IMG/VR virus record: IMGVR_UViG_3300044673_000097 | Coordinates: 1-64,000 of that record | DNA: 64,000 nt | From: a virus | Reading direction: 5' to 3' (one strand) | Shown: in pieces, positions 51,524-53,610 of the stretch | Numbering within the stretch: the first letter of the stretch is position 1 | How the letters are laid out: the number at the start of each line of letters is the position of its first letter | The notes under the pieces: model-generated | What the model saw: only the letters and a program-made list of their open reading frames with translations | What the model was told of the DNA's origin: nothing | Databases searched by the model: none | Position numbers and translations under genes: made by a program

Positions 51524-52108
51524 TCACGCCGCAGGCTTGTGGAGCAATCCGTTGAGACGCTCGATCTCCGCCTTGAGTTCCCCGTTCTCCCTCTCGAGTT
51601 CCTTGACCCTCTCCTTGAGCCTTTCGACCTCCGATTGCTCCCGCGCTTCCTTGCGCACGGCCTTGACTTCCTGGCACGGCTTGCGCGCTTCGGGCGCAAC
51701 GTCGCGTACGATCTGGCGGACCTTCGGCAATCCAGGCGAGCACCCTTCCTTGTCGATGTGGTGCTTGATTGCGGCGACCAGTTCCGCCTTGCGGGCGGGA
51801 GTCGATACCACAGCGGGATGAATCATCGCATGCGCCGCATCGGGGCCGACCAACTTCGCCACCTCGATTCCGTATTCGTCGATCTGCCTGCACACGTGGT
51901 TGTACTGGTGCAGACCGATCACGTTCGGAAACTCGCGCGTCAGGAATGCTGAGAACGTGGCGTGCTGCCCGAGCTTCCACGTGCCCTCTTCCTCGATTGC
52001 CCGGAGCTGCACAAACACGTCAACGCCTGCGCTGTGCCACGTTGCCAGCAGCCCACGGACGCGATCGACAATCCCCTTGTACGCTCGCTCGTCGCTCTTC
52101 TTGCTCAT
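51524..52108 (-). CDS. hypothetical protein with C-terminal coiled coil, coupled to the Cas12f-like gene
   Basis: AGGAGG RBS, ATGA overlap; LRAIEEEGTWK..HATFSAFL.REF pattern. Confidence 0.75.
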   Translation of the reverse strand: MSKKSDERAYKGIVDRVRGLLATWHSAGVDVFVQLRAIEEEGTWKLGQHATFSAFLTREFPNVIGLHQYNHVCRQIDEYGIEVAKLVGPDAAHAMIHPAVVSTPARKAELVAAIKHHIDKEGCSPGLPKVRQIVRDVAPEARKPCQEVKAVRKEAREQSEVERLKERVKELERENGELKAEIERLNGLLHKPAA

Positions 52109-53610
52109 TGCACGACCTCCTGTTGCGGCGCCGTGAGCGCCTTGGTAACCCGGCCCTTCGTCTTCGCCTTGACCTTCTCTGCCACCTTGCCCGTGACCCC
52201 AGCGTGCCCCGCCTTCGCGAGCGCGTTGACGCATGCAACGATGTCGCGGTGTGCCTGGTGCTCGCACTTCTGGCACTTGAACCGCTTGACCACTTCGGAG
52301 CGCGTGAACCGTCGCCCGTGGTATTCGATCACCTCGACCCGCTGCGTGGCATCGAACAGATTTCCGGGGTCGGCATACCCGCACGCTGGGCACGTCTGCG
52401 AATCATACGCGACGTTCTTGATCTCGACTCGAACGCCGCGCTGCTTGCCCTCCCGATCGACGGCTTGCGCGAGTTCGTAGAACGGGAAGCTGTGAATCAT
52501 GCGCCGCACTTCCTCGTGCGCCTCTCCTCCGGTCTTGCGCTCGAATCCTTCGCGCGAGTCCGTCATGTCCGGCCACAGCAGCAGCCCGACATTGTGAGCA
52601 AGGCACCACGCGATTGCGCCCGCCGCAATCTGTCGGATGCGCGTAGTCACGAACCGGGACTCCGCGTCCTCGAGATTCGTCACCGGGCGCATTCGGCGTT
52701 TGACCCCGTGGCCCTTGGACCCGCTGCCCATCGTGTTGATGCACCGCTGGATTGATGCGCGACGGTGCGCGAATCGTTGCCTCGCGACCACGATGTCTTC
52801 GCCGGACACGTTGTGCTCGAAGCCGTCCGCTGTGACGATCTGGACGAACCTCGACACGCCGATGTGCGCAGCGGCCACGCCCGTGGAGGTCACTTCTGCG
52901 ACAGGCTCGCCAGACCATGAGATGAGGGCGAACCACTTTCGGCGGTTCTCGTCGTAGGAGATTCCCACGCGCCCGAGTTTCACCTCGCCCGAGACGAGCT
53001 TGCGCCACATTGCCTCGCCGTTCTTTCCGCACGGCGCGACGATGACGCGCGTGGCCTTCTTGCCTGCGCCCAACAGCGGGACGGTGAGCACGGCACGCGA
53101 CGGCGGCCCCTCGACTTCGCATGAACGCGAGCGGGCGTAGAATGCGGCGGACGCGTGCCACGACGGGAACGATGCCCGGTTCGCGAGCAGGTCTTTCAGG
53201 TGCTCACCCGTGAACCGGGAGGCAATGTTGTCCATCGTCTCGGCCGTCCAGTATTCGGTCACGTGGACGAAAGCATCTTCCGGCATCGGGCGCGATTGGC
53301 GCTTCGGCTTCTCCCGCTCGGATTGCTCACGAGCAAGCGCCGTCGCCATCTCGTCATTCCACATGCGCTGCAACACCGGGCCGATCTTCCCGGTGAAGGC
53401 GTACTTTGCGGAGTTCCTGTCGTCGGCGCGTCGCTTGAACGCGTCGAGCATCGCCACGGCTTCGGGATACAGCTCACGCATGGCCCGATTGAGCGCGGGA
53501 CCGAGCGTCATGCGCATGGCACGAAGGCGAGGACCAACGTCATCCCACGACGCAAGCTCGGGCTTGACGATTTCGACCTTCAGCGTTCCGGCTAGCGTCT
53601 TGGATTCCAA
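52105..53610 (-). CDS. cas12f: Cas12f1/TnpB-family RNA-guided protein with inactivated RuvC
   Basis: EIVKP...W, ASFPSW, LVSGE...KWFALISW, GHGVKRRMRP, SQTCPACG, FKCQKC..HRD..ACVN; RuvC-I AAHIG, RuvC-II LWPDM. Confidence 0.9.
   Translation of the reverse strand: MESKTLAGTLKVEIVKPELASWDDVGPRLRAMRMTLGPALNRAMRELYPEAVAMLDAFKRRADDRNSAKYAFTGKIGPVLQRMWNDEMATALAREQSEREKPKRQSRPMPEDAFVHVTEYWTAETMDNIASRFTGEHLKDLLANRASFPSWHASAAFYARSRSCEVEGPPSRAVLTVPLLGAGKKATRVIVAPCGKNGEAMWRKLVSGEVKLGRVGISYDENRRKWFALISWSGEPVAEVTSTGVAAAHIGVSRFVQIVTADGFEHNVSGEDIVVARQRFAHRRASIQRCINTMGSGSKGHGVKRRMRPVTNLEDAESRFVTTRIRQIAAGAIAWCLAHNVGLLLWPDMTDSREGFERKTGGEAHEEVRRMIHSFPFYELAQAVDREGKQRGVRVEIKNVAYDSQTCPACGYADPGNLFDATQRVEVIEYHGRRFTRSEVVKRFKCQKCEHQAHRDIVACVNALAKAGHAGVTGKVAEKVKAKTKGRVTKALTAPQQEVVQ

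Follow-up and report, generated by a model that had tools for sequence, protein, structure and literature searches.

Naturally nuclease-dead proteins that bind DNA under the guidance of RNA are known in few settings, namely TldR, dCas12f-sigma-E, Cas12m, Cas12c and Cas12k. The locus analyzed here appears to be a further case. It lies in the first 64,000 nucleotides (nt) of one 85,379-nt virus record (IMG/VR IMGVR_UViG_3300044673_000097, rated 88% complete), a stretch that we refer to as the window, and it encodes a Cas12f1-type protein, hereafter the effector, in which residues of the RuvC nuclease site have been replaced. We consider it probable that the effector is part of a phage-borne module derived from type V-F CRISPR systems and devoid of adaptation genes, and that, with its RuvC site disabled, it acts as an RNA-guided DNA binder against mobile elements or host genes.

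The closest described protein is AsCas12f (type V-F1; PDB 8j12, 8dzj, 7wju), which is the best match of the effector in both sequence and structure. Like the module, the AsCas12f system has a CCCC zinc finger, small size, and a trans-activating CRISPR RNA (tracrRNA) with an anti-repeat together with an array. The effector differs from AsCas12f in that the motif I Asp and the motif II Glu are replaced, and in having a beta-hairpin of 20 amino acids (aa) in the zinc finger and a 12-aa insertion after motif II. The module as a whole differs in being phage-borne, in having no cas1, and in having a conserved coiled-coil partner.

In Bacteroidota, dCas12f-sigma-E is, like the effector, a naturally nuclease-dead Cas12f relative used as an RNA-guided DNA binder; it is C-terminally truncated, has lost part of RuvC, and is paired with rpoE (Hoffmann et al., Nature 2026, PMC13472631). 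The solved dCas12f has 365 aa (9n9c, phmmer E 2.2e-5), whereas the effector is full-length with motif III and zinc finger, has no rpoE neighbour, and is found on a phage. Identity with dCas12f-sigma-E was rejected because of that full length and because the neighbouring gene encodes a 194-aa coiled-coil protein without a sigma family. One sentence of the same paper proposes repression for a separate cluster of putative dead Cas12f proteins beside CRISPR arrays (PMC13472631), and inactivated TnpBs linked to phage integrases, as well as omega-RNA-like arrays, were mentioned by Altae-Tran et al. (PNAS 2023). The family of the effector may fall within either of these two groups.

TldR proteins are also RuvC-dead, guide-dependent DNA binders, and some are found on temperate phages, where they repress a chosen gene, but they descend directly from TnpB, use a single adjacent guide without tracrRNA or array, and have lost the C-terminal zinc-finger/RuvC region (10.1101/2023.11.30.569447). 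Since our locus has a dual guide and an array, and the effector retains its zinc finger and motif III, identity with TldR was rejected as well. Binding without cutting, as we propose for the effector, is further described for the type V effectors Cas12m (type V-M), which silences rival plasmids (PMC11656645), and Cas12k (type V-K CRISPR-associated transposons) and CasMu-V, which guide transposition, CasMu-V having lost motif III (PMC10910872). In Foldseek the effector matched Cas12m2 (E 1.5e-10) and Cas12k (E 6e-8) less strongly than AsCas12f. A transposon effector of the Cas12k/CasMu-V kind was rejected because motif III is kept and because no rve transposase was found in the 85-kb record or in the 137-kb record of a related phage (86-88% complete; control positive in 7/14 genomes). 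The search for Mu DDE_2 was also empty, but its control matched nowhere, and it is thus uninformative on Mu-type transposases.

Phage-encoded type V systems include the Cas12r-CRISPR of Thermus Lalka phages, which is expressed in infection and has spacers against other mobile elements; that system is a working CRISPR in which Cas12r interferes with both plasmids and phages, whereas the effector here is without two catalytic residues (10.64898/2026.04.20.719267). By analogy, the nearest functional counterparts of the module would be the plasmid-borne Cas12m, for the silencing of rivals, and the active phage Cas12r, for conflict between mobile elements. We found no paper describing the family of the effector, and array-linked dead Cas12f received a passing mention only, with none on phages, in the literature available to the search, which did not extend to supplementary family lists. 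Here, a full-length Cas12f1-type protein is apparently held dead by selection on temperate phages, together with a tracrRNA, spacer arrays and a partner of no known family.

The effector and its RuvC site

The effector gene is the central feature of the locus:

52105 to 53610, minus strand: predicted nuclease-dead Cas12f1-type effector, 501 aa, with His249, Pro347 and Asp456; its CCCC zinc finger is extended by a beta-hairpin insertion of 20 aa

The reading frame starts at a TTG that is preceded, 6-7 nt upstream, by GGAGG, and it runs through 501 codons with no frameshift or internal stop. Its translation ends in a Lys-rich tail. Both the tail and the uninterrupted frame had been noted in a preliminary description of this DNA, made from the letters alone. 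The protein matches Pfam PF07282 (Cas12f1-like TNB) at E 5.6e-12 and scores 76.1 bits with the NCBIfam guided_TnpB model, which is below that model's cut-off of 100. When solved structures were searched with phmmer, the top match was AsCas12f of Acidibacillus sulfuroxidans (8j12_A, 4.6e-16), followed by 7wju_A and 8dzj_A. An AlphaFold2 model, built with 19 homologues, had a mean predicted local distance difference test (pLDDT) score of 84.5, and its best Foldseek match was again AsCas12f (8dzj_A, E 5.2e-22, template modelling score 0.75 by target length), with 8j12_A also found and with other Cas12f structures, dCas12f 9n9c, TnpB, Cas12m and Cas12k among the lower matches. The model indicates that the effector has a Cas12f fold (WED/REC/RuvC/TNB), with Cas12f1 proteins as its closest relatives.

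Alignment with phmmer placed AAHIGV of the effector over IDLGV of 8j12, so that the RuvC-I Asp is replaced by His249, and LLWPDMT over IQMEDLT, so that the RuvC-II Glu is replaced by Pro347. At RuvC-III, Asp456 in HRDIVA aligned with the Asp of NADYNA in Asp-bearing relatives. The Asp-Glu-Asp triad of Cas12f1 nucleases is consequently not intact, two of its three residues being replaced, and the alignment to AsCas12f and homologues contained no alternative acidic residue at the two lost positions. The alignment to Un1Cas12f, of effector residues 249-462 on chain residues 326-516, is consistent with these assignments if, as we take them to be, D326 and D510 are the catalytic residues of that enzyme.

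All four zinc-finger cysteines (Cys407, Cys410, Cys446 and Cys449) are retained. The distance from CxxC to CxxC is 35 residues, against 15-18 in seven relatives that retain the motif I Asp, which amounts to an insertion of about 20 aa, and this insertion was modelled as a beta-hairpin (418-430 and 433-445). The loss of the RuvC-I Asp (AAHIG, H249) and of the RuvC-II Glu (LWPDM, P347), the retention of D456 and of the four cysteines, and the zinc-finger insertion were all asserted in the preliminary description, and all were borne out by these alignments and by the model. A further insertion relative to AsCas12f, of about 12 aa (FERKTGGEAHEE; window 52513-52560, residues ~351-366), immediately follows RuvC motif II. 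It is kept family-wide as GEAHE (GGEAHEE region), is poorly modelled (pLDDT 46-61), and occupies the position where Cas12 lid elements lie.

Conservation and selection in the effector family

A word-indexed search returned 20 homologues of the effector. When 1.84 billion representatives were searched exhaustively with HMMER, 680 matches were obtained at E <= 0.001, 36 of these at E <= 1e-30. The catalytic columns were read from an alignment of 160 proteins, made up of a close family of 42 (P0001-P0042) and 118 more distant representatives (P0043-P0160). Not one of the 42 close representatives has Asp at motif I, where Asn (31), His (7), Val (2), Ile (1) and a gap (1) were found instead. At motif II, Glu is present in 32, and the others have Pro (5), Val (2), His, Leu or Gln (1 each); the five with Pro are exactly the subclade of the window, reading WPDM. 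Motif III is Asp in 41/42 and Glu in one, and the four zinc-finger cysteines are complete in 42/42. The close representatives are intact proteins of 242-659 aa, with identity reaching down to about 31-35%, and because the substitutions are common to homologues as distant as 34% identity, they are not chance events. In the window's own subclade His249 and Asp348 are retained in 5/5 members.

In the 118 more distant representatives motif I is His in 66, Asn in 22, Arg in 16, Asp in 7, Gln in 3 and another residue in 4, while the motif II Glu is kept in 90 and the motif III Asp in 109. These counts point to a very large, mostly unexplored radiation of Cas12f-like proteins in which the motif I Asp has been replaced.

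The ratio of nonsynonymous to synonymous substitution rates (dN/dS), which had been recommended as a check, was 0.15-0.31 in five gene pairs (Nei-Gojobori), values that are a rough indication only, since synonymous sites are saturated (dS 1.4-2.5), and that show only that amino-acid change is restrained. The identical protein was also found in a second assembly, with residue 1 as the sole difference (Met written for the TTG start). Taken together, the data support that the family is held by selection in what appears to be a catalytically disabled state and is not a dying gene. This is because 42 intact representatives without the motif I Asp still show the fold together with the zinc finger and Asp456, because dN/dS is low, and because the RNA, the arrays and the partner described below are conserved with the gene. 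Of the earlier proposal that the protein was domesticated as a DNA binder, domestication as opposed to decay is thus supported, and binding without cleavage is what we infer.

Two homologues have features of their own. That at L007:998-2614 has an extra N-terminal CxxC...CxxC stretch of ~25 aa. Another, on a 43,994-nt IMG/VR viral contig (L003:5656-8340), is 23% identical to the effector and has Arg at motif I, with Glu, Asp and the zinc finger kept.

Scaffold RNA and repeat-spacer arrays

Between the effector gene and the genes upstream of it, the window contains the following features:

53845 to 53945, minus strand: tracrRNA-like scaffold, consisting of hairpin 1, AAAG, hairpin 2 (GGCGAGG / CCTCGCC), AAC and anti-repeat
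53615 to 53792, minus strand: mini CRISPR array of three 33-nt repeats and two ~37-nt spacers, from a repeat finder, with spacing of 70 and 71 nt
53756-53788, 53685-53717 and 53615-53647, minus strand: array repeats, read from the sequence
53718-53755 and 53648-53684, minus strand: array spacers, read from the sequence

Related loci (designated L001 to L008) were taken from viral contigs, species genomes and metagenomes, and a covariance model of the scaffold was built from ten copies. The model matched the window at 53870-53934 with 57.4 bits (E 1.3e-14). Compensatory changes on both sides of the stems were found in 6/13 pairs. The covariation score was reached by 0/500 shuffles, and 88.9% of cells were paired, compared with at most 49.2% when the 3' partners were slid. 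According to the covariance model, the scaffold adjoins the effector gene in the window, L001, L002, L004, L005/L006, L007 and L008. Its position is not fixed: it is upstream of the gene in L002, L004, L005/L006 and L008, just downstream in L007, and 1.4 kb downstream in L001. The window has a second, poorer copy as well:

51159 to 51481, minus strand: degenerate scaffold copy (51414-51481; covariance model 27.1 bits, E 9.2e-6) and worn repeat-like units ending in TGCAG

The predicted duplex between the anti-repeat and window repeat 2 had an energy of -47.1 kcal/mol, compared with -27.5 +/- 3.7 kcal/mol for shuffled repeats (z -5.3). For repeats 3 and 1 of the window the values were -42.9 (z -3.8) and -35.0 kcal/mol (z -2.2), respectively, and for L008 -35.0 kcal/mol (z -3.5). 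The last repeat of the window array is degenerate and contains the GGAGG ribosome-binding site of the effector gene. The small array of the window is considered real because distant members of the family carry arrays of 6-13 repeats. In L008 the array comprises 13 repeats, each 36 nt long, and its spacers measure 34-37 nt; L004 has six repeats, and L002 has 2+1; in L003, eight repeats with a period of 71-74 nt follow the gene and a repeat-like copy lies just upstream of it. Spacers are wholly different between relatives. The 3' motif of the repeat was counted over the whole contig and was not usefully enriched.

Given the covarying scaffold, the anti-repeat complementarity and the repeat-spacer arrays together, the scaffold and array are best described as a putative tracrRNA with a CRISPR array, in the manner of type V-F. 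In two cases noted by eye (CTGCAA/TTGCAG in the window and TTGCAC/GTGCAA in L006), complementarity also exists between the hairpin 1 loop and the final six bases of the repeat, and this pairing could form a pseudoknot.

A different arrangement was seen in L006, a relative with 64% identity. There, eight whole scaffold copies lie on both sides of the gene pair (L006:4418-4656, 6721-7563), interleaved with ~13-nt repeat ends and short spacers, and an integrase lies 1 kb beyond. This series gives the impression of natural single guides set one after another, and not of a classical array.

The coiled-coil partner

Immediately after the effector gene is a second conserved gene:

51524 to 52108, minus strand: conserved all-helical partner, 194 aa, with an ATG that overlaps the stop codon of the effector (ATGA) and translational coupling to it

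Homologues of the partner with 33-51% identity were found by tblastn downstream of the effector in L001, L002, L004, L005/L006 and L008, so that, counting the window, the partner is present in 6/7 distinct loci with enough downstream DNA; in L007 tblastn found no partner gene in the 2.9 kb after the effector. Together with the scaffold, the array and the partner, the effector gene thus belongs to a larger module of CRISPR type.

Apart from coiled-coil noise, neither Pfam nor PHROG placed the partner in a family, and it has no sigma family. Its model (pLDDT 88.8) consists of a helical N-terminal domain followed by one C-terminal coiled-coil helix of 44 residues. Foldseek returned nothing for it at E <= 0.001, the weak rows including Noc and SopB. 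With VIA-align, ParB (6s6h_B, Z 6.8), Spo0J (1vz0_A, Z 6.3) and KorB (1r71_A, Z 6.0) were all among the top five matches of the N-terminal domain, but the unrelated Raf1 came first at Z 7.0 and every row was below the bar for helical proteins (Z 8). Look-alikes in the ESM Atlas were mostly viral hypothetical proteins, some with DUF3102 or Plasmid_parti_N. It is possible, judging from the model, that the partner is a ParB-type DNA-binding dimer. Complex prediction for effector and partner scored 0.00 and gave no verdict, and speaks neither for nor against an interaction.

Spacer targets

One protospacer was identified. Spacer 1 of L004 matches at 32/36 positions, the last 27 of them contiguous (BLAST E 2.7e-6 for that genome), a sequence on a different, phage-like contig from the same metagenome bin (10.4 Mb). 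The match is inside a large open reading frame (ORF) with a podophage Gp77 fibre-tail adaptor domain (Pfam Gp77, phrog_13352), and other genes of that contig match phage tail families; the ORF has no homologue in the window's phage. The targets may be rival phages, host genes or both, with this protospacer as one data point for rival phages.

The other searches gave no target. Full-length matches to the two window spacers with at most three mismatches were, within the window, the spacers themselves, and in the 85-kb contig blastn-short and an exact-word scan found at best an exact match of 13 nt, or one of 16 nt that includes a mismatch, as would arise by chance. The L008 array had no target in phages and none in 401 genomes (two candidates scored per genome), and part of one of its spacers and part of an L004 spacer had no match in IMG/VR. 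The L002 spacer matched only itself in IMG/VR, with no self-target in its 137-kb record. For the L003 array there was no target in phages, and in its own record the only match was the repeat-like copy upstream of the gene.

Proposed function and alternative explanations

We hypothesize that the module functions as follows. The upstream scaffold RNA would use its anti-repeat to pair with repeats in the small array, and the effector, probably dimeric like Cas12f, would load the resulting dual guide of tracrRNA and CRISPR RNA (crRNA). The loaded effector would then recognize complementary double-stranded DNA beside a protospacer-adjacent motif (PAM), form an R-loop, and remain bound without cutting, thereby blocking RNA polymerase or replication on the target, as known dead type V effectors do. 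The targets would most likely be other mobile elements (e.g., rival phages) or host genes. The small fixed arrays would be inherited and not acquired by the phage itself, or would be filled by the adaptation machinery of the host. From sequence and models we infer the loss of cleavage, the binding of DNA, the silencing and the kind of target alike. If the proposal is correct, phages have small CRISPR-interference systems of their own, directed at competitors or hosts and needing no adaptation genes; a new way to couple an RNA-guided binder to a second activity may come to light through the partner, and the effector is a compact, naturally optimized binder of possible use as a tool.

Several observations weigh against this proposal. 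Most members of the family keep the motif II Glu and the motif III Asp, which leaves open residual metal-dependent activity in those proteins. The conserved insertion at residues ~351-366, beside motif II, is modelled with low confidence and holds Glu and His, which may lie near the site. The anti-repeat duplex was not significant against shuffled repeats in L004 (z 0.0) or L002 (z -0.6), two loci in which a perfect 10-nt complementarity of repeat and anti-repeat (AACACCTGAC / GTCAGGTGTT) is visible by eye. The spacers add further difficulties. One protospacer only was found among the ~28 spacers examined across five loci, and its four mismatches fall in the first nine spacer positions, at the PAM-proximal end, making efficient binding there less likely. 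It is at this end that Cas12 enzymes are least tolerant of mismatches. The window spacers themselves had no match in IMG/VR (exact 20-mers), GenBank phages or PLSDB plasmids, and gave noise only in 301 genomes of the order of the linked metagenome-assembled genome (MAG), with a best E of 6.1e-5 per genome and mostly GC-rich repeat.

Among the alternatives, two would retain guided binding. The guides may silence host genes, such as those for defence or surface structures, and not rival phages, so that the same binding serves counter-defence or host remodelling; a prophage-encoded TldR represses the host fliC gene (10.1101/2023.11.30.569447), and spacer 2 of the window is AT-rich, as is much promoter DNA. 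We regard this as a minority possibility, as the sole protospacer is in a phage tail gene and none was found in the 301 and 401 genomes sampled. By analogy with dCas12f/sigma-E or Cas12k/TniQ, the effector might instead be an RNA-guided loader of a two-component machine, in which the partner acts at the target through repression, occlusion or tethering. The overlap of the partner start with the effector stop, the presence of the partner in 6/7 loci, its confident long-coiled-coil model, and the repeated weak likeness of its N-terminal domain to those of ParB-family proteins (ParB, Spo0J, KorB, Noc, SopB) are what would be expected of such a machine. Its structural matches, however, are all at Z <8 with the unrelated Raf1 first, Foldseek gave nothing at E <= 0.001 and Pfam no family, the partner is absent from L007, and its role might just as well be to regulate the module locally, and we view this explanation as doubtful. 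Comparably tentative is a broader form of it, in which dead Cas12f and a coiled-coil, possibly ParB/KorB-like partner would together serve temperate phages as an RNA-guided silencing device in two parts, the effector loading or anchoring the dimeric partner on the DNA of rival phages or hosts, with the family as one branch of the large, mostly virus-borne radiation lacking the motif I Asp.

We consider each of the other explanations far less probable. Regulation of the phage's own late genes would suit the conserved position between replication and packaging genes, a frequent site of late activators, and an operator-like element shared with the immunity region (described below), but it is very unlikely, as the guides match at most 13 nt exactly in their own 85-kb contig, none matches in the 137-kb record, and spacers differ completely among relatives. 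The effector may still be an enzyme, with a non-canonical site (His249, Asp348, Asp456) that cuts DNA or RNA or processes pre-crRNA; the occurrence of His249 and Asp348 in 5/5 members of the subclade and of Asp456 in 41/42 representatives fits with this, and TnpB relatives with rearranged catalytic sites have been reported (PMC10691335). This is just as improbable in our view, given that two of the three residues of the two-metal RuvC site are gone, that Pro cannot bind metal, and that Asn, Val and Ile occupy motif I elsewhere in the family. Use of the dead effector and phage tracrRNA as an anti-CRISPR decoy, which soaks up the crRNAs of a host Cas12f, would have a parallel in a phage-encoded RuvC-dead Cas9 with its own tracrRNA, for which such a role has been proposed (PMC10910872). 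The phages nevertheless have arrays of their own with matching repeats, and the linked MAG contains no other Cas12f/TnpB-like gene at E <= 0.001 and no second array of those repeats, and a decoy thus seems slightly less credible still. A decaying TnpB/Cas12f pseudogene without function is compatible with the loss of catalytic residues taken alone, but is barely conceivable for an intact ORF with 42 intact representatives, dN/dS well below 1, and a co-conserved RNA and partner.

The phage and the surroundings of the module

The 85-kb record contains genes for terminase, portal, capsid and a DnaB-type helicase, which lie on the same strand as the effector gene. A tyrosine integrase gene is at 2162-3286 of the record, and a CI-like HTH_3 gene is at contig 70711-71289, within a divergent promoter/immunity region (~70.7 kb) that also has a Bro-N gene. 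Based on the integrase and the CI-like repressor, together with the phage structural and replication genes, the record is that of a temperate phage. A search for Cas1, whose control was positive, found none in either phage record, that of 85 kb (88% complete) or that of 137 kb (86% complete). A search of sequencing runs showed that four rhizosphere metagenome DNA runs contain the DNA of the phage, with no RNA run among the matches listed. The assembled contigs of these runs yielded short fragments only, of which some were identical and others <90% alike, and they showed neither informative variants nor joints.

The module is placed between replication and packaging genes, and in the window and L002 alike, HNH and TerS-like (phrog_645) genes lie downstream of it. 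Upstream of the module is a further feature:

53989 to 54010, minus strand: candidate promoter/operator, GACAGCGCTG, a gap of 4-5 nt, and TTGACAG

The same combination of GACAGCGCTG, gap and TTGACAG occurs twice more in the divergent immunity region, at contig ~70649-70676 and ~73121-73150. Because this operator-like element is common to the module and the immunity region, the sequence suggests that the module may be controlled by the lysis-lysogeny switch. No minus-strand promoter was predicted upstream of the module by a simple sigma-70 scan. Scans of the window gave no Rfam match at the gathering threshold and no tRNA.

The TerS-like gene at 49027-49506 has a weak Sigma70_r4_2 match, below cut-off, that is the sole sigma-like match nearby. 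Genes with DUF1643 and DUF6011 (window 55305-55991 and 55820-56509) are located upstream of the module, with small Cys-rich ORFs between these and the scaffold. Farther upstream, at window 62365-62655, an 11-nt unit, CGAGGGTCTCG, is repeated in tandem in two blocks (3.6 and 4.1 copies), and a 7-nt repeat is also present. These repeats precede the gene for the DnaB-type helicase (59680-61227, minus strand) by ~1.1-1.4 kb and may represent iterons of a replication origin.

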